Assembly (NCBI GenBank): GCA_041690135.1
Contig: JAWLHY010000001.1
Span: forward strand, 1,216,001-1,280,000
Direction: 5' to 3'
DNA length: 64,000 bases
DNA from: Armatimonadota bacterium
Lineage (GTDB): Bacteria; Armatimonadota; SYMT01
In this document: piece by piece, positions 30,003 to 41,293 of the stretch
Layout of the letters: the number at the start of each line of letters is the position of its first letter
How positions within the stretch are numbered: position 1 is the stretch's first letter
Notes under the pieces: model-generated
Told to the model about the DNA's origin: nothing
Databases searched by the model: none
The model's input: the letters and a program-made list of their open reading frames with translations, nothing else
Position numbers and translations under genes: made by a program

Positions 30003-32150
30003 TCACTCCGTCTGCGCCGGAGTCTCCGGCTCCTGTCCCGGCGCGGGATTTGTCTCGGTCTCTCCGCGAGAAGCGGCTGCTTCATCCGCGGCGGGCGGTG
30101 ACTCGACCTCCCCCGCGGCCGGCTCCGTCTGTTCAGCTGGCTCCGTCTGTTCGGCCGGCTCCCCCGTCGTATCCGGAACCGCGGTTTCCTCTACCGGGGC
30201 AGCCGGCGTGGTATCGCCTTCCTCTGCCGGCCCGGTCGGAACCGGATCCGTGGTTGCCGCGGGGGATTCCTCGGGCGCGGACTCGTCAACCGGCGCGGGA
30301 ACTTGGCCGGCTTCCGCGGGGGGCGCGGCGACCTGTTCTTCTTCCGCGGAGCCTTCCGTGGCCGAGACGATGTTCTGGTCGGGAGCGCCTGCCCCGGCTT
30401 CATCGGTCGCCGCTTCAGCCGGCTCGCCTTCCGCGGGGCCGCCGGCTTCAGGGGCCGCGGGTGCCGGCTCCCCTTCGGGAACCAACTCACGACCAGCTTC
30501 GGGGGCCGGTCCGGCGGCCGCGGACTCTTCTGCCGTGGCCTCCGAGCCGGAAGTCTCCGGCACGTCGTCGGCACTTTCCGCCACCACTTCGTCCGGGATT
30601 TCCGCCTCCGCGACTGCCTCCGAGGCTTCGGCGCTCTCCGCCGGAGTTTCGGGCGTCGGCGTCTCTTCCGGTTCCGTCACTTCCGGAGTGGGTTCCACCG
30701 GTTGTTCGGCTGCCAACGGCTCGGCGGACTCCTTCGGGGCCGGTTCTTCCGTCGGCCGGGCGGACTGGGCTGTTGGGGTGGAAACCAGAAGCATTGGCCG
30801 GATGCGGGTGATCCGCCAGACCACACCCGTTCCGCCGAACGCTTCGATTCCGTACTCGCGGTTGAGGTGGATCTCCCCCAGGTCCACTACGTACAGCACT
30901 TCCCCGGTGGGATCAAACGCCACGTCGAACGGTCGTTCGAGACCACCGCTGTGGTTAGCGGCGGAGGAAGGAGCCGCCTGTTTGTTGACCAGGAAGTCCG
31001 TGACCGCTCCGGAGCGCATATCCACCCGAACCACCCGGTACCCGCTCGGGGCCACGTCCTCGCCGGGGTAGGCCGCGGCGCTCCACTCTCCGGTAAGGGC
31101 CACAAAGGCTTCGCCGACAAAGCCGAAGCCTTCCGCCGTGGAGAACCCGAGCCGGCCGATTCCCGCGCGTGCGGGGAATACGGTGAGCGGCGAAGCGGAG
31201 ACCGTTGGGGCGTTCGCCAGCAACGGACGCGGCTGGGGATGACCGGGCAGGCGGAACCGGGCTTCCGTAACCGGAATGCCGCTGGCATGGTCCGGCCAAC
31301 CGTAATACTCGCCCGACCGAATCTCCCACAGGTTGTCGGGGGCTCCCGCGATGGGGCGACTCCCCCGCTCTTCCATACCGCCTTCCGTGGCGAAGATTCG
31401 CCCGTCCGGCGCACAGGCGACCCCGACCGGGTTGCGGAGGCCCCAGGCGAGCCGCTCCGGTTCGGACGCGTCCGGCGCCAGGCAGTAGACGGCGCCGCCG
31501 CAGCGTTGGGCGCCGCCCAGCTTCTCGCCCGGCTCGCTGCGGACCGAGTACGGCTTGAAGCCCCCGGTGGTAACCCGCGCCGCGCCGGCCGGCGTCGTCC
31601 GCGAGGTCACGTAGTTGATCCCGGTCAACTGCACGTCGACACCGGGAATATCCGCGTGCTGGGGATTCCGGGCGACCCAACCCCGCGCGATGTTGTCCAA
31701 CCCCACTACGCCGCTGTTCGTCCGCGTGCCCAACCCGAACAGCAAAGCGCCGTTAGCGTCCTGTGAAAGTCCGCTCAGGCCGTAGTCTCCCCCTCCCGGG
31801 AGACCCTCCACCAGGATCTTGACTTCTCCCTCCGCAGTCACCCGCAAGATGCGGGGAGAGGGACCGTCTTCTGCAATCAGCAGTTCGCCTTCCCGGTACA
31901 CCAGCCCGACAATCGGGTTCTCAAGTCTGCCGATTTCGGAGACGGACTGGTCCGGGTCCACCCGCAAGACCCTGGGTACGGCCACTACCGAGCCGGCGAC
32001 TCCTCCGGCCTCGGCCAGATAGAGCTCACCGCCGGTCCCGAACGAGATCGCCGAGGGAAACGTCAGCCCGGTAATCAACGGCTCGACACGATATCCCTGC
32101 GGCGCCACGATGGCGTCCGGGTTCACCGGGCGCTGTGGTCCGATACGCAT
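30003..32150 (-). CDS. Glucose/sorbosone dehydrogenase-like beta-propeller with long acidic low-complexity tail
   Basis: GLTFPSAISF; GTRTNSGVVG; AWGLRNPVG; YGWPD; GLERPFDVAFDP; about 250-aa E/A/P/T-rich tail. Confidence 0.82.
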   Translation of the reverse strand: MRIGPQRPVNPDAIVAPQGYRVEPLITGLTFPSAISFGTGGELYLAEAGGVAGSVVAVPRVLRVDPDQSVSEIGRLENPIVGLVYREGELLIAEDGPSPRILRVTAEGEVKILVEGLPGGGDYGLSGLSQDANGALLFGLGTRTNSGVVGLDNIARGWVARNPQHADIPGVDVQLTGINYVTSRTTPAGAARVTTGGFKPYSVRSEPGEKLGGAQRCGGAVYCLAPDASEPERLAWGLRNPVGVACAPDGRIFATEGGMEERGSRPIAGAPDNLWEIRSGEYYGWPDHASGIPVTEARFRLPGHPQPRPLLANAPTVSASPLTVFPARAGIGRLGFSTAEGFGFVGEAFVALTGEWSAAAYPGEDVAPSGYRVVRVDMRSGAVTDFLVNKQAAPSSAANHSGGLERPFDVAFDPTGEVLYVVDLGEIHLNREYGIEAFGGTGVVWRITRIRPMLLVSTPTAQSARPTEEPAPKESAEPLAAEQPVEPTPEVTEPEETPTPETPAESAEASEAVAEAEIPDEVVAESADDVPETSGSEATAEESAAAGPAPEAGRELVPEGEPAPAAPEAGGPAEGEPAEAATDEAGAGAPDQNIVSATEGSAEEEQVAAPPAEAGQVPAPVDESAPEESPAATTDPVPTGPAEEGDTTPAAPVEETAVPDTTGEPAEQTEPAEQTEPAAGEVESPPAADEAAASRGETETNPAPGQEPETPAQTE

Positions 32151-32456
32151 GTGCAACCTCTTTCGTGGATGCCGGGAGCGCAAATTACGTCCTGGAAGGT
32201 CATCTTTCGGCCTTCCACACGCGCGCTTCCCGTCGGGATCGACCGGGTGCCGCCGCTTGTTCAGCAGCCGGGCAGGGCCGTGACCCCACCGCACACCGGC
32301 TATCGATCCCTTCGACTATACGGCAAGCCGGTTTTACTCTCCTCCGGCCGTTTATCGGGTTTGCCGGCCCCGCCTCCTGCAAAGGGGGAATCGGGAGAGA
32401 AGCGGCCGCGCGGTTGGGAGTTCCGCCTCCCCTCGGCGCAGCCTCTCCCAGGCGAC

Positions 32457-33414: not shown

Positions 33415-34581
33415 TTAGCGCACCCCCAACAGAACCTCGGTGGTCAATTGATCCAGCTTTTCGTAGCCGCGGCCGGTCGCGCCCACCGCAACCCGGTCGA
33501 TGTTCAGCGCGCGAATGGCGTCGGCATTCGCCTTGCTGTAACCGCTCATCAGTCCCTGCAATCGCTCGTCCTTCGCGCGGATCTCCGCCAGCAGCCCCTG
33601 GATCTCCGTGTCGGCGTTGAAGCGCGCCACCTTTTCCTGAAGGATCTTGTAGGTGCGCATGCAGCCGGCGCAGAAGTCCCACACGCCCGCCGCATCTTCC
33701 GTCCGCATGGCATGCGCGTCGAAATGCCGCATGCCGCCCCACTGGTAGTCTTCCAGTAGCTTGACGAGGAAGAAGGCGCCCTTGATGTCCTCCTGCCCGA
33801 AGCGGAAGTCCTGGTCGTAACGCCCCGGCCGTTGCGCGTTGAGATCGATGTGGAACAGCTTGTTCTGTTCCAGGGCCTGCGCCACCCCGTGATAGAAATT
33901 CAGGCCCGCCATCGTCTCGTGGGCCACTTCCGGGTTCACTCCCACCATTGTCGGGTCGTCCAGGGTTTCGATGAACGCCAGCATGTGGCCGGTTGTGGGC
34001 AGGTAGATATCGCCGCGCGGCTCGTTCGGTTTTGCTTCCAGGGCGAACTTGAGGTTGTAACCGTTGTCCTTCACGTAGCCGATGAGGAAGTTCATGCACT
34101 CCCGCATCCACTTCACCGCCTCGACCGCGTCCTTGGAGGCATCGACTTCGGTCCCCTCGCGGCCGCCCCAGAAGACATAGGTGGTGGCGCCGAGCTCTAC
34201 CCCCAGGTCCATCGCCTGCATGGTCTTCTGCAGGGCGTAGGCGCGGACTTTCGGGTCGTTGGAAGTGAAAGCGCCGTCCTTGAAGATCGGGTCTCCAAAG
34301 AGGTTCGTGGTGGCCATCGGCACCTTCATGTCGTGGTCGGCGAGGGCCTGCTTGAACTCCGAGACGATGCGGTCCCGCTCGGCCGGGGTGGCGTCGATCG
34401 GCACCAGGTCGTTGTCGTGCAGGTTCACCCCGTACGCGCCGAGCTGGGAGAGCCGAACGACGCCTTCCACGGGGGAGATGCGCTCGCGAACCGGCTCGCC
34501 GAATGGGTCGCGCCCTGGATTGCCGAAGGTCCAGAGCCCGAACGTGAAACGATCCTCCGCGGTGGGTTGGTAGCGATCCAT
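33415..34581 (-). CDS. xylA: Xylose isomerase (class I)
   Basis: FTFGLWT..GRDPFG; HDND; VFWGGREG; [10 protein letters not shown]; NPEVAHE; HIDLN; DQD. Confidence 0.96.
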
Positions 34582-34797
34582 GATACTTGCCTTTCTGAAT
34601 CCGCCGAGCCGGGGAATCGACGGTGATCACCGGTGGCGAAAGCCGGAATTTGCTGTCGGCGGCTGCGACACGGGTAATTCTACAGCCGTCCGATCGAACC
34701 CTGCTCAACTCTCCTCACCCGACACCGGGATAAGGTAAGGATAAGAGGGAAACAGCAGGGTGCTGCTCCAGAAGAGGCCTGTTAAGGAACCACTCCC

Positions 34798-35055
34798 ATG
34801 CCCGTTCGACGCGCGAAACAGCCGGAGGCGGCGGAACCGGAGAGCCCGGTCGTCCTGCATAAGAATCTCACCGTCCTGACCACCACGGACCCCCTACTCC
34901 TCCGGGAGATCAAGGCGGATAAGAAGATCGGCCCCCACCTGATCGCGGAGCTTTCCGAGACCACCGTCATTCTCGCTCCCGGCTCGGAAGAGGCGGTGAC
35001 CCGCCAGTTGCTGAAGGCCGGTCACCTGCCGCAGATTCGGAAGGGGACGCCATGA
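34798..35055 (+). CDS. Small stand-alone domain resembling a segment of XPB-associated proteins
   Basis: LTVLTTTDPLLLREIKADKKIGPHLIAELSETTVIL..VTRQLLKAGHLP; stop overlaps the next ATG (ATGA). Confidence 0.75.
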   Translation: MPVRRAKQPEAAEPESPVVLHKNLTVLTTTDPLLLREIKADKKIGPHLIAELSETTVILAPGSEEAVTRQLLKAGHLPQIRKGTP

Positions 35056-37496
35056 GCCGGGACGACTTCTTCGATGAGGAGGATTTCCTGTTGGACGACG
35101 ACCTGGCGCCGGAGGAGATTCTGGATCTCCGGGCGGTGGCCGGAACGTCTGCCAACGAGCCGATGAGCGCGGAAGAGCGGGCGGAGTTGGCGGCGTTCTT
35201 CCACGGCTACAATGCCGAAGTCTTGAAGCGGATGGCGAACCTGTGGGCCGGGCCGCGCGCCGGCACTCGGAAAGAGCAGTGCGTCCAGGCGATGGTCGGG
35301 GTGCTGGCCGACCCGGCGAAACTTCGGGAGATGATCGGGCGGCTCACGCCATTCCAACGGGCCGGCCTGGGGCTCCTGATGTACCGTGGGGGCGTGGCGC
35401 CCTCCGTGGAATTCGCCGCCGAGTTGTTGGGCCTGGGACTTCCCTTTGAACGTGTGGGTCTCTACTACAACTATGGCTATGGCTATAACCGCGGTGGCTC
35501 CGGCATTGGGGCGTTAAGCGCGCTCATGGCCACGGGGCTGGTGCTGGACACCGGCATCGACGATCTTACCGGCACTTCCCGGCAAACGTGCTACTTCCGC
35601 CACACTTATGTAGCCGCGGTGACCACCTTCGGCCGGGTCGCCCCGCTCCTGACCGTGCAGGCGCCGGAGCCGCTGAAGGTGGAGCCCGTGGAGTTCACCG
35701 GCCACGGTCGCTTCCGGCGCCCGGCGGAGGCGGCGCTGCCGATGATCAGTCTGATCGATGCCCTTCGGAAGGAGAAGGAGATCCTCCTGACCAACCGCGG
35801 CCGGTTCTCGAAGTCGCTGATCAACCGGCTCGTCAAGCGCGTGGGATTGGACGCCCCAGCCGCCGCGGAAACCCAAACACCCCTGGAGGAGGCTACTTTC
35901 TTCTACCTCCAGCTTCTGATGTCCGGCCGCTTTTTCACCCCTCCAGGTGCGGGCGGCGAGATTCGGCTCTCCACCGTGGTGGATGATGCCATCGCTTCCC
36001 CTTACGAGATCCAGGTGTTGAACTGGGTGCGGGGCTACCGGTCGCTGAAGGGCTGGCATGAGTCCCTTCCCCCTACCGTGGCGCTGTATTCCGACAACGC
36101 GTTTTCGGCGAATTCGATCCACGCCTTCCGCGCCCTGGTGCTCTTGACGCTGGGCGCCCTGCCGGACCCGGAGCGGTGGTACGCTGTGCAGGCGTTTTCC
36201 GATGCACTCTACGCACGCGTCGGCGACCAGTTTTCCATCGCCTACGTCTATCCGTTCTACACCACGCAGCGCGATCCCACTAAGGCCGAACGGGAGCGCC
36301 AGGCTTACCTGCAGAAGCAGCATGCCAACTGGCAGCAGCGGGAAGAGGTTCTGCTTCGGAATATGCTGATCGGGCCCCTCTTCCATCTCGGTCTCGTCGA
36401 GCTTTCCTTCGCGGAAACCGACGACACGCGGCAGCGGCTGCGGTTCCGGCTGACGGACCTGGGGCGCACCGCACTTTACGATACGCTCCGGCCCGGTAGC
36501 CGCCCGATGACACCTGCGGCCGAGAGCCTCCCCTCGGAGCCTTGCTGGGTGGTACAGCCGAATTTCGAGGTGATCGCCTACCTCGATCGAGCCAGTCCGG
36601 CGCAGTTGGGTTTCCTGGGCCGGATCGCCGAGCGGAAATCACTCACCGGCGCGGTCGGAGTATATTCCATCACGCGCGAGTCGGTGTACCACTCGCTGGA
36701 AGCCGGCATGGCGGTAGAAGCTATTCTTGAGACGCTGCAGGCCGGCGCAAAGCACGATCTGCCGGAGGTGGTGGCGCGCAGCATCCGGGACTGGGCTGGC
36801 CGGCGCGAGCGGATCGCCGTATACGTGGACGCCTCCCTGCTGGAGTTTCCCGACCGCGAGAGTCGGGATGCGGAGTTGAGTCGGAAGTCGGGCCTGGGTC
36901 GGCCGGTCGGAGACCGGTTCGTGCTCGTGGAGAAGCAGGGCAGTGCGGCGAAGCCCGGCGTTGCGGTGGGGCGGACCGTGGACTATCATGCCGTCGCCAG
37001 CCGGTGCGTCCGCGTCTCCGAGGAGGGGCTGCTGGAGTTGATCCCGGAGAAGGCCGACCTCCTGGTGTCGCACGAATTGGATGCCATCGCGCGCCGGGTG
37101 GTGGGAAATTCCCACCAGTGGGTCCTGGACGCGAAATCCGTGGGGGAGGCGTCGCAGGCGGGGTTCACCGGGGAGGCCATTCTCTCTCTGCTCGGGCAGC
37201 GCAGCCAGGGGGGGATTCCGGCCATCTTGCGCGTCGCCATCTCCCGGTGGGCGCTGAAGCGGCGGTCCTCGAAGGTGCCGGCGCTGGGAAAGGTGACCCT
37301 CCTCCAGCTTCCGACGCTGGAAATTGCGGACGCTCTGGCCGGAAGCCGGCGCGCCGCTCCGTACCTCCAGGCACGCCTGGGCCCGCAGACCTTTCTGGTG
37401 CCTTCAGAGGCCGCGAGGCCGCTGGGTAAGCTGCTCGTCGAACTGGGGCTCGAGGCGACGGGCGCCTTCGAAAGCCTGGAGTGGTCTCCCGATTGA
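35052..37496 (+). CDS. Helicase-associated (Helicase_C_3-like) domain protein without helicase motifs
   Basis: WVVQPNFEVIAY..YSITRESVYHSLEAGM..ILETL..LPEVVARSIRDW, plus a second copy (WVLDAKSV..GFTGEAIL..IPAILRVAISRW). Confidence 0.8.
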   Translation: MSRDDFFDEEDFLLDDDLAPEEILDLRAVAGTSANEPMSAEERAELAAFFHGYNAEVLKRMANLWAGPRAGTRKEQCVQAMVGVLADPAKLREMIGRLTPFQRAGLGLLMYRGGVAPSVEFAAELLGLGLPFERVGLYYNYGYGYNRGGSGIGALSALMATGLVLDTGIDDLTGTSRQTCYFRHTYVAAVTTFGRVAPLLTVQAPEPLKVEPVEFTGHGRFRRPAEAALPMISLIDALRKEKEILLTNRGRFSKSLINRLVKRVGLDAPAAAETQTPLEEATFFYLQLLMSGRFFTPPGAGGEIRLSTVVDDAIASPYEIQVLNWVRGYRSLKGWHESLPPTVALYSDNAFSANSIHAFRALVLLTLGALPDPERWYAVQAFSDALYARVGDQFSIAYVYPFYTTQRDPTKAERERQAYLQKQHANWQQREEVLLRNMLIGPLFHLGLVELSFAETDDTRQRLRFRLTDLGRTALYDTLRPGSRPMTPAAESLPSEPCWVVQPNFEVIAYLDRASPAQLGFLGRIAERKSLTGAVGVYSITRESVYHSLEAGMAVEAILETLQAGAKHDLPEVVARSIRDWAGRRERIAVYVDASLLEFPDRESRDAELSRKSGLGRPVGDRFVLVEKQGSAAKPGVAVGRTVDYHAVASRCVRVSEEGLLELIPEKADLLVSHELDAIARRVVGNSHQWVLDAKSVGEASQAGFTGEAILSLLGQRSQGGIPAILRVAISRWALKRRSSKVPALGKVTLLQLPTLEIADALAGSRRAAPYLQARLGPQTFLVPSEAARPLGKLLVELGLEATGAFESLEWSPD

Positions 37497-37508
37497 TCGA
37501 AACCGTCC

Positions 37509-38519
37509 CTAACCCGGCTGGTCGTCAATCGCGGGCTCGATGAGGACCAGCACCTCTCGCCCATCCTGTTCCCGACGGCTGACAACGAGGCGATAGGTCC
37601 GGTTGGCGGCCAGCGCCAGGGTTGAACGGATGGAAGAGGCGCCCCGTCCGTTTGCCCGGAGTTGATACGACCCGGCGCCGAGCGTGAGCGGGAGCGAGGT
37701 GCCGGGGGCGATCATCGCGGTACGCGTGCCCTGACCCTCGATCACCACGTCCACCGGGGCGGCGTCGTCATTGCGGATCATCACCACCGCGCGGGTGCCG
37801 TCGGGGCGCGCGAGCCCGCCCAGTGACGCATCGTTGCTCGGCACCGTGGTCTCCAGGGGGGCGGGAGCGGGAGCCCGCATCACCGTGACCGACTGCCGTG
37901 CGGGCCCGGACTGGCTGTAGACCACCGTGGGAGGGCTCGACCGCGGGTAGACCGGCTGGATAGGCACGGCGGTTGTCCGCGGTGGCGGGATAGGCCGGGG
38001 GCGCACGGTGACGACCGGAGTCTCGACGCGGGGCGTCGTCGAGCCACGTGTGTCGGTTGAGTCAGGCGTCCCGGGCCTGGGCACCTGAGCGTAGTGCTGG
38101 GGCATCGCTGCCGCCTGCGGAGAAACCAGTTGGGGATCGGTGGCCGGAGGCACGGGGAGTTGGACCGGTTGAGTAGCTGCGCTCTCAATGGTAGGCGTAC
38201 GGGCCGGTGGTGCGCTTGCCCGGCCAATCCAGAAACCCACGAGGCACGCGCAAATCGCCCCAGCCGCCCCGGCTCCCACGTAGAGCGCGGCGGGCCACTT
38301 TCGTTCCAGCGACCAGGAAAGAGTCGGCTGCCGGTCCAGGTCCCAGGATTGGGTACGGTCGTCCGGGTTCGGGGCACCCATCGGCATGAATTGGTGCTCC
38401 CCGCACGACCAGCAGCGGCTTTCGCCTTGATCGTTCAGACTCCCGCACCCGGCGCACGCTTTGCGAACCACACCAGCCCTCCGCTTCTGGGAGACCGATC
38501 GAGAGGCAACCCCTACCAA
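37509..38519 (-). CDS. Zinc-ribbon / TM / Pro-rich / beta-sandwich hypothetical protein
   Basis: CAGC..CWSC; TM; Pro/Thr-rich stalk; C-terminal LGAGSYQL domain. True start may be about 38472. Confidence 0.7.
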   Translation of the reverse strand: MVGVASRSVSQKRRAGVVRKACAGCGSLNDQGESRCWSCGEHQFMPMGAPNPDDRTQSWDLDRQPTLSWSLERKWPAALYVGAGAAGAICACLVGFWIGRASAPPARTPTIESAATQPVQLPVPPATDPQLVSPQAAAMPQHYAQVPRPGTPDSTDTRGSTTPRVETPVVTVRPRPIPPPRTTAVPIQPVYPRSSPPTVVYSQSGPARQSVTVMRAPAPAPLETTVPSNDASLGGLARPDGTRAVVMIRNDDAAPVDVVIEGQGTRTAMIAPGTSLPLTLGAGSYQLRANGRGASSIRSTLALAANRTYRLVVSRREQDGREVLVLIEPAIDDQPG

Positions 38520-38712
38520 CCCGGCCCGGCACCAGCCGGACCGGAGACCGAACCCGCGGCTACTGTCTCAGCTTACCGACGCTTGCGATGGTTCAAACTC
38601 TCCGTCTCACCTGTTGGAAGAACGGCATCGGCCACGAGTTCCATGCGCGAAAGGTTAAGCGCCGCGCTGCGTTGAAGTGATTGTAGCACGGACGGTAAAT
38701 CAGGAGACACGA

Positions 38713-39510
38713 ATGAAACTAGGAGCGAATTCGGTCCTGTTTGGCGGACACGATCTGGAAACAGCCTTCAAATACTTTTCGATGGCGGGATATGACGGCA
38801 TTGAGCTCTCCGCCATCCCCAACATGAGCGAGCACCTGGTCCTCGAGCGGTGGCAGGAATTGGTGCCGGAGATTAAGCGGTACGCCCGCGATTACCAGCT
38901 CGAGTTGCTGGCCATCGAACAGCCGTCCCAGGACGCCGGCCGCATGGAGCAGGCGTTCCAGGCCGCTTCCGAACTGGGTGTGCCTGTGGTGAACTGCGGA
39001 CCCGGCGGCAAAACCGGCGACGAGGAAAGCCTGCAGCAATCCATCGATACCATTGGGCGCCTCGTGGGGATGGCCGAGAAATACGGGGTCACCCTTTGCG
39101 TCAAGGCGCACGTCGGCAATGCCATCTACAACACCCCGACCACCCTGCGTCTGATGGAAGCGATCACCTCCCCGCTCTTTGGGGTGGACATGGACCCTTC
39201 GCACATCTACCGGGCCAATGAAGACCCGGTAGAGGCGATTACGGCCGTGGTCTCCCGGGTGAAGCATGTGCATATCCGCGACTGTAAGGGTCGCCAGCAG
39301 GGCCCCGGTAAGCCGGAACTCCAGGCCAACGGCCGGGGCGACATCAACCTGGTCGGCTACATCCGCGCGCTGCACGACGCCGGGTACACGGGCCCCGTCA
39401 ACCTGGAGATCATCGGGGCGAAGGAGTACACCGTGGAGCAATGCTGCACCATCGCCGCCGAGTCCCGGGGTCACATGCAGGCCTGCCTACAGGCCTGTGG
39501 TGCAAGGTAA
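38713..39510 (+). CDS. Sugar phosphate isomerase/epimerase (xylose-isomerase-like TIM barrel)
   Basis: GYDGIEL; DMDPSH; HVHIRD; GYTGPVNLE. Confidence 0.88.
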   Translation: MKLGANSVLFGGHDLETAFKYFSMAGYDGIELSAIPNMSEHLVLERWQELVPEIKRYARDYQLELLAIEQPSQDAGRMEQAFQAASELGVPVVNCGPGGKTGDEESLQQSIDTIGRLVGMAEKYGVTLCVKAHVGNAIYNTPTTLRLMEAITSPLFGVDMDPSHIYRANEDPVEAITAVVSRVKHVHIRDCKGRQQGPGKPELQANGRGDINLVGYIRALHDAGYTGPVNLEIIGAKEYTVEQCCTIAAESRGHMQACLQACGAR

Positions 39511-39574: not shown

Positions 39575-40156
39575 ATGTCCGTAGCTGTTCGCGAGGTAAC
39601 CCCTCCCCTTCTCACGTATGAAGACTATCTTGCGGAAGGAGAGGTCAATCAGAGGTACGACATCATCGATGGAGTGCGCATCGTGACGAACCCGCTTCGC
39701 CGTCACCAGCGGATTACTCAGAAGCTGCTGCGTGCGCTGGAAGACTACGAAACTGCGACAGGCCGCGGAATGGCCGTTGTTGCGCCATCGGATGTCCTGA
39801 TTACCCAGGTACCGCTGCGAACTCGCCAGCCGGACGTGCTCTTCATCAGTCATGAGCGGCTGGCGGAATGCGCGGGCGATACGGATCCCGCGCTGTTGTT
39901 CCGCGCTCCAGAATTCGTGGTAGAGGTGCTCTCTCCGAACGAGTCCCGTGGGAGCATCCTGTCCAAGCTGAATGATTATGCGCGGGTCGAGGTTCTTGAA
40001 GCCTGGCTGGTAAGCCCCCAGGCAGAAACGATCGAGGTGATCCGTCTTGCGACGGATCACCTCGAAACCGTGGCGGTCTACGGGGCAGGGCAATCGGCGC
40101 GGTCCGTGGTGCTGGACGGCTTCGAGATCCCCCTGTCCGTTGTCTTCGCCCGGTGA
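39575..40156 (+). CDS. Uma2 family endonuclease
   Basis: AGGAGG RBS; RQPDVLFI; APEFVVEVLSP; KLNDYA..EAWLV. Confidence 0.88.
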   Translation: MSVAVREVTPPLLTYEDYLAEGEVNQRYDIIDGVRIVTNPLRRHQRITQKLLRALEDYETATGRGMAVVAPSDVLITQVPLRTRQPDVLFISHERLAECAGDTDPALLFRAPEFVVEVLSPNESRGSILSKLNDYARVEVLEAWLVSPQAETIEVIRLATDHLETVAVYGAGQSARSVVLDGFEIPLSVVFAR

Positions 40157-40157
40157 A

Positions 40158-41060
40158 CTAACCGAAACCGGCGACCTTCTTCACGACCTGCATCGCGTGC
40201 TCGGGCGTGGAGGAAGTCCCGTGCTCCATCCCTACGTAATCGGCGTAGCCTTCCTGGCGCAGCACCTTGAAGATGTTCTCGTAGTTCATCTCGCCGGTGC
40301 CGGGCTCCTTGCGGCCGGGCACGTCACCGATCTCCACGAACTTGATCCACTTCTTCCGCAGCCCCTCGCGCAGGTTGTTGATGATGTTCCCCTCGCTGAG
40401 CTGCAGGTGGTACATGTCGAAGTCCAGCTTCACGTGCGGGTGGTTCACCTCTTCAACGATCTTGAACCCGTGCCGGGCGGAGAGGACGCTCATCTGCGGG
40501 CTCTCGACGATGTTGAGCGGCTCCAGGCAGAAGTAGACGTTGTTCTTCGCCGCGATATCGCCGGCTTTCTTCAGCCCTTCGATGAACTGGCGGTGCTGCA
40601 CTTCGAGCGGGATATCCTTCTCGGTGGCGCCGAGGAAGCAAATCAGGTTCTCCACGCCGAACCGCTTGGCCACTTCGATGTGATCCTTGAAGTCCTGCAG
40701 GAAGGCCTCTTCGTAACCGGTCTTCGTCAGCCCGGTTTTCCAGCCGGTCTTACCGTTTCCGGTGATGCTGCCGCACTTCAAGCCTGTCTTCTTCTGCGCG
40801 GCTTCCATCGCGGCGGCCTGGTCCTGCTTCAGGCCCCAGAAGCTGAACGCCTTGTACCCCGCATCCGCCACCCGCTGGATGCGCTCGGCGTAGGGCATGC
40901 TGCGGGGGAACATGATCTCGACGTTGGCCGAGAGGGTGTAGCGAGGCGGCGGCACTCCGTCCTGCGCGGCGGCGGGGGCGGCCGTCTGCGCCAGTCCCGC
41001 CGTGGCGAGGGGGGCAAAGGCGGCGGCCGAAAGAAGCTGTCGGCGGTTGATTTCACTCAT
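40158..41060 (-). CDS. Tat-exported hydroxypyruvate isomerase family protein
   Basis: NRRQLL leader; CLEPLN; DMYHLQLSEGN; GDVPGRKEPGTGEMNY. Confidence 0.9.
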   Translation of the reverse strand: MSEINRRQLLSAAAFAPLATAGLAQTAAPAAAQDGVPPPRYTLSANVEIMFPRSMPYAERIQRVADAGYKAFSFWGLKQDQAAAMEAAQKKTGLKCGSITGNGKTGWKTGLTKTGYEEAFLQDFKDHIEVAKRFGVENLICFLGATEKDIPLEVQHRQFIEGLKKAGDIAAKNNVYFCLEPLNIVESPQMSVLSARHGFKIVEEVNHPHVKLDFDMYHLQLSEGNIINNLREGLRKKWIKFVEIGDVPGRKEPGTGEMNYENIFKVLRQEGYADYVGMEHGTSSTPEHAMQVVKKVAGFG

Positions 41061-41293
41061 AGCGGGCTCCGCGATCGATGACGTACGACGGGTGTCGGAA
41101 AAGAACAGCCCGGCATCCGGCCTCTCTTCACGGAAACTCACCGGTGAGGGAGCCACGGGTACAGTAAGGCCGGAGGGGCGAGCTAATATAGCTTCGGTGT
41201 GAAGGGCCCCGCAGACCTCCTCGGCCTGCGCTCCTCACCCCCTCCGGCTGTCTGGCGTATTTCTTGTTTCAGGGAGTAACCGGCGACGGGAGG

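Follow-up and report, generated by a model that had tools for sequence, protein, structure and literature searches.

Can a bacterium encode the non-catalytic partners of the XPB translocase at a distance from the helicase gene itself? This question is raised by two overlapping genes in a window of an Armatimonadota genome (GCA_041690135.1, contig JAWLHY010000001.1, positions 1,216,001–1,280,000); the window is the whole 64,000 bp stretch of DNA that was analyzed. The first gene (34798–35055, plus strand) encodes a small protein of 85 aa and the second one (35052–37496, plus strand) encodes a large protein of 814 aa. The original prediction had likened them to the p8/Tfb5 and p52/Tfb2 subunits of transcription factor IIH (TFIIH). 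According to the results given below, the pair is probably a two-gene operon for non-catalytic partners of a bacterial XPB translocase, namely a p52/Tfb2-like scaffold (called here the B-type partner) and a p8/Tfb5-like mini-subunit that is a free-standing domain. Both proteins are homologous to their TFIIH counterparts, and the pair travels with XPB across genomes.

The Pfam search revealed Helicase_C_3 (PF13625) in two stretches of the large protein, with a score of 69.6 bits against a cut-off of 34.2 and the best stretch at residues 500–603. Repeat 1 (residues 495–603; 36534–36860, plus strand) is homologous to the N-terminal domain (NTD) of XPB and aligns to the "clutch" of p52. Repeat 2 (residues about 668–776, of which residues 668–748 correspond to 37053–37295, plus strand) is homologous both to repeat 1 and to the XPB NTD. 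A search of the same genome placed the Helicase_C_3 stretches at 36549–36863 (48.6 bits) and 37068–37379 (29.2 bits, below the cut-off). The hhalign comparison gave a probability of 98.5% (E 3.8e-15) for repeat 1 and repeat 2 and of 98.3% (E 2.5e-14) for repeat 1 and the bacterial XPB NTD, and repeat 2 matched the XPB NTD with an E-value of 1.1e-8. Neither a Walker A nor a DExH motif was found in the sequence of the large protein, and Pfam gave no WYL match. Thus, the two Helicase_C_3-like repeats and the lack of Walker and WYL motifs had been read correctly in the original prediction, and the repeats proved to be homologous to each other.

The similarity of the large protein to p52/Tfb2 was seen using several tools. 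NCBIfam gave weak matches to the XPB N-terminus and to tfb2, and a member of the same family (L058) is above the Pfam Tfb2 cut-off (44.5 vs. 34.5 bits). The search of all PDB sequences with a 19-member profile of large proteins led to 15 matches at E ≤ 1, 13 of which were TFIIH p52/Tfb2 or XPB (for example, chains 8ebt_D, 7o4i_2 and 6trs_A for p52/Tfb2 and 8ebt_A and 6nmi_A for XPB). Positions 483–539 of this profile were aligned to residues 345–408 of human p52, which belong to the clutch region (E 3.1e-4). Modeling of the large protein using AlphaFold2 with an alignment of 19 sequences led to a model with a mean predicted local distance difference test (pLDDT) value of 77.2 and a predicted TM score (pTM) of 0.66. 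This model was compared with 350,542 PDB chains using Foldseek, and all 20 matches at E ≤ 1e-3 were located in TFIIH-containing entries. Ranks 1–19 were occupied by p52-length chains (289–453 residues) aligned over 377–577 columns with E-values from 5e-9 to 8.6e-4 and probabilities of 0.99–1.00, the best match (E 5e-9) covering 565 columns; rank 20 and many weaker rows were XPB-length chains aligned over 85–220 columns. Since 377–577 columns were aligned, the likeness to p52 spans most of the chain and extends beyond Helicase_C_3. The TM scores of these matches were low (0.14–0.22 per query length, with a root-mean-square deviation (rmsd) of about 15 Å), as would be expected if the domains of a long flexible multi-domain chain were oriented differently in the model. 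The p52/Tfb2-like nature claimed for the large protein was therefore supported both by the Foldseek search, where p52-length TFIIH chains were the best 19 matches, and by the profile that finds human p52.

For the small protein, no Pfam families were found at E ≤ 1, no NCBIfam family was found, and its nearest ESM-Atlas clusters were all named "hypothetical protein". The pairwise BLASTP search revealed no match between the two proteins of the window (best E 3.2). Moreover, the genome contains 65% G+C, so long spurious open reading frames (ORFs) are common, and the small ORF might be taken for a chance one whose likeness to the C-terminus of the large protein is compositional. This assumption has practically no chance of being right and was refuted by several results. 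Among representative proteins, 1018 matched a 16-member profile of the small family at E ≤ 1e-3 and 165 matched it at E ≤ 1e-10, and 124 of the best 150 matches were no longer than 135 aa. The synteny of the small and large genes is kept across at least two phyla, and in the closest relative the small protein is more conserved (93–94% identity) than its large neighbor (72%). Residues H21, L71, G75 and P78 are near-invariant in the family (K.GH.PK motif).

The compositional explanation is also contradicted by the profile–profile comparison. When 126 small proteins were compared with 15 C-termini of large proteins using hhalign, residues 21–79 of the small protein were aligned to residues 745–803 of the large one over 59 columns with a probability of 97.2% and an E-value of 3.2e-11; control segments of the large protein gave probabilities of no more than 3% with the small family. 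The alignment of the small protein with the C-terminus of the large one had previously been made by eye; it was reproduced in the same register, being invisible to pairwise BLASTP. The C-terminal domain (CTD) of the large protein (residues 745–803; 37284–37460, plus strand) is thus homologous to the small protein, and it is the counterpart of the p52 CTD. The small protein of a relative matched residues 741–783 of the large protein even in a BLASTP search (38.6% identity, E 6e-5 in a four-sequence database). In the model of the large protein, the C-terminus consists of a strand (748–752), a helix (756–764), two strands (774–777 and 780–784) and a helix (785–797). The order of these elements agrees with the model of the small protein, in which the predicted order is beta-alpha-beta-beta-alpha-beta (strand 25–28, helix 32–40, strands 48–51 and 56–59, helix 64–73). 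Other Helicase_C_3 proteins (618–793 aa) also end in a domain that is matched by the small profile at an E-value of about 1e-12, and these terminal domains carry the G(H/Y)TP(K/R) ending, as does the small family. The profile of the CTDs of the large proteins (A5) gave 20 matches with PDB sequences at E ≤ 10, and none of them was from TFIIH. A candidate second p8-like unit after repeat 1 (residues 596–676) was rejected as too weak (hhalign probability 28%, E 6e-4). Two further proteins with this domain were observed: P0131 (758 aa) bears a SWIM zinc finger at its N-terminus together with Helicase_C_3 and a p8-like domain at its end, and P0109 (296 aa) is an XPB C-terminal helicase fragment joined in frame to the small-protein domain, which may represent either a true fusion or an artefact of gene calling.

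The small family was compared with 177,635 PDB sequences using a 126-member profile (A3). The best five of 11 matches were all yeast TFB5 (E 0.0025–0.0037), with 49 residues aligned (profile positions 21–69 to Tfb5 residues 7–55), and the next match was a designed TIM barrel (E 0.032). An earlier profile of 16 sequences had given TFB5 in five of six matches (E 0.39–0.61). The structural comparison of the small model with 48,161 chains using VIA placed Tfb5 at rank 4 (Z 6.1; top Z 6.2), and human XPB 171–293 (Z 5.6), C. thermophilum p8 (Z 5.5) and the Tfb2 CTD (Z 4.9) were found in the same search. In a second VIA look, the DRD region of human XPB (9pd3_A 171–292) was first with a Z of 6.6, and the XPB DRD, p8/Tfb5 or the p52 CTD accounted for 13 of the 50 rows shown. 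Over both looks, Tfb5 had a Z of 6.0–6.2 and an rmsd of 2.4–2.6 for 56 aligned residues and p8 had a Z of 5.3–6.0, and unrelated folds tie with them. Thus, the assignment of the small protein as p8/Tfb5-like was upheld by the family profile, which puts yeast TFB5 in the first five places in the PDB; the fold match alone is not decisive. A further match of the small profile in the same genome (C11:163288–163410, E 0.0023) was taken as noise, as it overlaps a 332-aa ORF in a different reading frame.

The distal XPB-like helicase that had been postulated for the pair was found on another contig. It is the only XPB of the genome (C13:234463–236214) and it passes the NCBIfam XPB equivalog with 863 bits against a cut-off of 610; its motifs I, II, RED and VI are intact (PCGAGKT, DEVH, RED and QRLGRILR). 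Directly upstream of this gene and translationally coupled to it, with a 4-base overlap, is located the gene of a 683-aa Helicase_C_3 paralogue, called here A-type (locus L020 on contig C13, 8461–12266, minus strand). The A-type protein contains one clutch-like domain, then an internal p8-like domain (residues 483–535) and a C-terminal tail without a Pfam WYL match. Since XPB already lies beside a p52-like paralogue, the pair in the window is a second partner set and not the sole one. A p8-like domain was also found in XPB at about residues 108–165, directly after the NTD (L020:9715–9909 and eight others, alignment A6). The small family was aligned with XPB residues 98–172 by hhalign with a probability of 96.7% and an E-value of 4.5e-10 (control XPB residues 1–100: 0.8%), and the B-type C-terminus matched the p8-like domain of XPB with an E-value of 8.1e-10. 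The same small domain is carried by four proteins of this genome. The A6 profile gave no PDB matches at E ≤ 10, so the equivalence of XPB residues 108–165 with the human DRD is drawn from position and VIA only. The homology of the XPB domain with the small protein and the best structural match of the small model, which is the human XPB DRD, suggest that p8, the p52 CTD and the domain at the DRD position of XPB form one domain family. As a separate observation, the XPB match in most genomes of family f7 (e.g., G246:C29:69486–71318) is divided into two pieces within one open frame; the gap of about 20–40 unmatched residues (55–120 bases) near residue 300 resembles a lineage-specific insertion between the helicase lobes.

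These data also bear on a different wiring, in which the small protein would be a free copy of the XPB DRD-position domain that docks on XPB or the A-type protein, or binds DNA. Indeed, the small family resembles XPB 98–172 as closely as it does the B-type C-terminus, the hidden Markov model (HMM) of the small family scores the A-type internal domain above the cognate CTD (23.1 vs. 12.5 bits), and the human XPB DRD region is the single best structural match of the small model. However, the small gene was never seen without a B-type gene directly downstream where contigs reach, nor in genomes with only A-type and XPB genes, and it is often translationally coupled to the B-type gene. In addition, passages of two TFIIH papers (PMC7708078, PMC6422496) describe p8 and the p52 CTD as sharing one fold and dimerizing through beta-strands, and the former supports a same-fold dimer of p8 with the p52 CTD. 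This wiring is therefore considered unlikely, and pairing of the small protein with the B-type scaffold is preferred.

The linkage of the pair to XPB was evaluated in a sample of 401 genomes of the phylum to which the window belongs. A stand-alone small gene was found in 17 of them, and in 16 of these carriers a B-type homologue lies directly downstream; the contig of the remaining one (G391) breaks off within the small ORF. XPB is located in one gene string with the pair in nine carriers, the order being XPB–small–B in G017, G356 and G391, small–B–XPB in G085, G133, G142, G336 and G386, and A–small–B–XPB in G258. In the other eight carriers, including the genome of the window, XPB lies on another contig. 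The original prediction would have been refuted if carriers lacked XPB; presence profiling revealed XPB in all 17 carriers vs. 50 of the 401 sampled genomes overall, where the carriers span seven families and related genomes are not independent. In 33 XPB-positive genomes no stand-alone small gene was found; the small gene was seen only beside B-type genes, and no B-type search was made in those 33. In the locus with four genes (L057, G258:C655, 3003–9469), an A-type protein of 623 aa, a small protein of 70 aa, a B-type protein of 891 aa with a WYL-like tail and an XPB of 569 aa are encoded with overlaps or gaps of no more than 27 bases, and it is the only locus seen with all four proteins that carry the p8-like domain together. 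The module was also found outside the phylum: all three plasmid matches were Deinococcus megaplasmids with the order XPB–small–B, whose small genes encode proteins of 99–115 aa named "hypothetical protein" (80.7–81.6 bits with the small HMM) and overlap the B-type gene by 4 bases. A search for related loci in genome contigs with the large protein gave 386 pattern matches, none of which was confirmed.

Two irregular B-type loci were observed in the course of this analysis. In L018 (G003:C269, 8105–12926), two B-type paralogues of 764 and 759 aa lie in tandem; a single small gene was detected, which sits in the interval between the two, upstream of the second paralogue. In L054 (G373:C305, 1986–4193), the B-type gene is split into ORFs of 460 and 250 aa, which may reflect a frameshift, pseudogenization or a faulty assembly.

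It could be assumed that the unlinked pair in this lineage has left XPB and now functions either by itself, as a scaffold that binds DNA or has a regulatory role, or together with another helicase. The pair is indeed unlinked in eight of the 17 carriers, the XPB of the genome under study is adjoined by its A-type partner, the neighbors of the pair in the window are sugar-metabolism genes, and a second, weak ERCC3_RAD25_C match exists in this genome (C4:56077–56475, 51.7 bits). On the other hand, XPB is kept in all eight unlinked carriers, and both the XPB-NTD-like repeats and the p8-like CTD are conserved. In addition, a quick tree (SH-aLRT support only, midpoint root, careful search unfinished) showed unlinked pairs interleaved with XPB-linked ones. 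We regard a departure from XPB as very unlikely, and an unlinked pair that still serves XPB is the preferred explanation.

The organization of the pair in the window is as follows. The two genes overlap by ATGA (35052–35055, plus strand), so that the stop codon of the small gene falls within the start of the large one, in agreement with the translational coupling of the 85-aa and 814-aa products that had been predicted. A 4-base overlap of the small and large genes was also found in G005, G002, G142, G336 and three Deinococcus operons. Shine–Dalgarno-like runs upstream of both genes are purine-rich: AAGGA, read from the sequence, at 34784–34788 (plus strand) is located 9 bases 5' of the small-gene ATG, and GGAAGGGGA at 35039–35047 (plus strand) lies within the end of the small gene, 5' of the large-gene ATG. 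A scan of 34400–37800 for sigma-70 promoters revealed no sites, and four terminator-like sites were found in the same region vs. 2.0 expected. The tRNA and Rfam scans of the window gave no match.

As had also been claimed, no helicase gene adjoins the pair: the genes on both sides are on the opposite strand and are metabolic or unrelated, so the pair can be considered a self-contained two-gene unit. A gene of a xylose-isomerase-like TIM-barrel protein starts 216 bases upstream of the small gene on the opposite strand, and 12 bases downstream of the large gene is the end of an opposite-strand ORF of 336 aa, whose only match, to DUF4397, is weak and below the threshold. Three such TIM-barrel genes (AP_endonuc_2) surround the pair (33415–34581, 38677–39510 and 40158–41156). 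Farther neighbors include DUF218, GSDH-like (glucose/sorbosone dehydrogenase) and Uma2 genes and more TIM-barrel genes. The Uma2-family gene, which encodes a putative restriction endonuclease, is located 2 kb downstream of the pair (39581–40156). In the GSDH-like protein (763 aa; 30003–32294, minus strand), the last residues, about 270 in number, form a low-complexity tail enriched in Glu, Pro, Ala and Thr.

The surroundings and the distribution of the module are relevant to the possibility that it is part of an anti-phage or mobile-element defense system around an XPB-type helicase. One B-type clade (L058, P0148) ends in a WYL domain, a kind found beside CRISPR-Cas and other defense genes; the XPB helicase core resembles the PbeA models of PADLOC (88.7 bits); the distribution is patchy (50 of 401 genomes); and the D. 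taeanensis operon lies beside insertion sequence (IS) elements. However, the small, B-type and A-type proteins matched no families of PADLOC-DB 2.0, no matches were found in 50,697 phage records, and the only three plasmid records with the module are all non-mobilizable megaplasmids of about 400 kb. In the neighborhood of the pair there are no defense genes except the Uma2-family gene. A defense function thus seems improbable; it concerns the biological role and is compatible with a p52/p8-like mechanism. Among the candidate roles of the preferred partner set of XPB (repair, transcription-coupled events or defense), the WYL domains in one clade and general lore on XPB point to DNA damage.

A number of results weigh against the identification of the pair as partners of XPB. 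The large protein itself is under the Pfam Tfb2 (PF03849) cut-off (18.9 vs. 34.5 bits, E 8.1e-4), its sub-threshold match being between residues 465–566 and the end of the Tfb2 model. The curated threshold of Pfam Tfb5 (PF06331) was not reached by the small protein, and three of the 126 family members matched this model below the threshold (best E 0.068). The model of the small protein is moderate (pLDDT 69.4), and the Foldseek search of the PDB with it gave nothing at E ≤ 1e-3, with UreE first at 0.039 and Tfb5 at rank 13 (E 0.1); likewise, every VIA Z of this model is below 8, a level at which proteins with a common alpha/beta arrangement may be matched fortuitously. XPB and the A-type proteins contain a p8-like domain as well, so there are several candidate partner domains for the small protein. 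The XPB of the genome already has an adjacent A-type partner, and the B-type and small proteins could be redundant or work elsewhere. Finally, G001 (95% complete) and G004 (90% complete), both from the same family as the genome of the window, have XPB, and no small or B-type gene was found in them with the queries used; G001 also has an A-type gene beside XPB. Because XPB occurs in these two genomes without the pair having been found, the pair appears to be dispensable for XPB as such and accessory to an A-type–XPB core.

By analogy with TFIIH, the following mechanism may be proposed. The small protein would pair with the CTD of the scaffold to form a pseudo-symmetric two-domain unit, and a clutch-like repeat would pair with the XPB NTD. 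The assembly could then clasp the RecA lobes of XPB and modulate its activity as an ATPase and translocase. It is most likely that one XPB would be served by the A-type, B-type and small proteins, as in the four-gene operon of G258, because the only XPB of the genome under study lies on another contig directly after an A-type gene.

Among the closest known systems is the eukaryotic XPB–p52(Tfb2/GTF2H4)–p8(Tfb5/TTDA/GTF2H5) module of TFIIH (e.g., 6NMI, 6TRS and 3DOM). The large protein is alike over about 565 columns, a clutch-like domain is homologous to the XPB NTD, the fold of the CTD is shared by a separate subunit of about 70 aa, and the genes are linked to XPB. In contrast to p52 of TFIIH with its one clutch, the bacterial scaffold has two clutch-like repeats. 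The small protein differs from Tfb5 by an invariant His and a K.GH.PK tail not aligned to it, and many bacterial genomes add an A-type p52-like paralogue and/or a WYL domain. What is new here with respect to the known module is that it is bacterial, has a duplicated clutch and an extra paralogue, and is split from the helicase. Bacterial XPB of Mycobacterium tuberculosis and Kineococcus, studied alone according to passages of PMC3353954, belongs to the same helicase family, whereas conserved p52-like and p8-like partner genes are described here. The archaeal XPB–Bax1 helicase–nuclease, as presented in parts of PMC7672443, is similar in that a prokaryotic XPB has a dedicated partner encoded nearby. 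However, Bax1 is a nuclease, whereas no catalytic motifs were found in the bacterial pair, which is homologous to p52/p8. The large protein is also a member of the RefSeq class of "helicase-associated domain-containing protein"/Helicase_C_3 proteins (some with WYL) that are found beside bacterial XPB, but it has no WYL domain and is not beside XPB. The Deinococcus orthologues bear this RefSeq name, which carries no hint of p52 or p8.

To our knowledge, p52 and p8 have been treated as eukaryote-only regulators of XPB. A full-text literature search, with subscription journals outside its coverage, gave no description of a bacterial p52 or p8 homologue. Passages of a 2012 paper on M. tuberculosis XPB state that bacterial p52/p8 homologues were not found, and passages of a 2026 review (PMC13024598) describe what XPB does in archaea and bacteria as more elusive. 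In eukaryotes, according to part of PMC7708078, p52 and p8 not only stimulate XPB but also restrict its speed. As the window shows, partner genes can sit far from the helicase, and therefore gene-neighborhood surveys would miss them.

A broader interpretation can be put forward tentatively, with slightly more doubt than confidence. Bacteria would carry the whole "XPB lobe" of TFIIH, i.e., XPB, a p8 homologue and a full-length homologue of p52, and this sub-complex would be older than eukaryotes or exchanged with them. In this interpretation, p8, the p52 CTD and the second N-terminal domain of XPB, at the DRD position, would be copies of one ancestral domain, and the C-terminal half of p52 would be a duplicate of the XPB N-terminal region. 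In the genome studied here, the single XPB with two scaffolds, the A-type one beside it and the B-type one with the p8-like protein at a distance, would form a four-subunit motor complex. If the identification of the pair is true, the absence of partners may explain the poor enzymatic performance of isolated bacterial XPB in vitro. The bacterial XPB–p52–p8 set would also be a small, genetically tractable model of how the p52–p8 clamp tunes the XPB motor, and it would bear on the origin of TFIIH.

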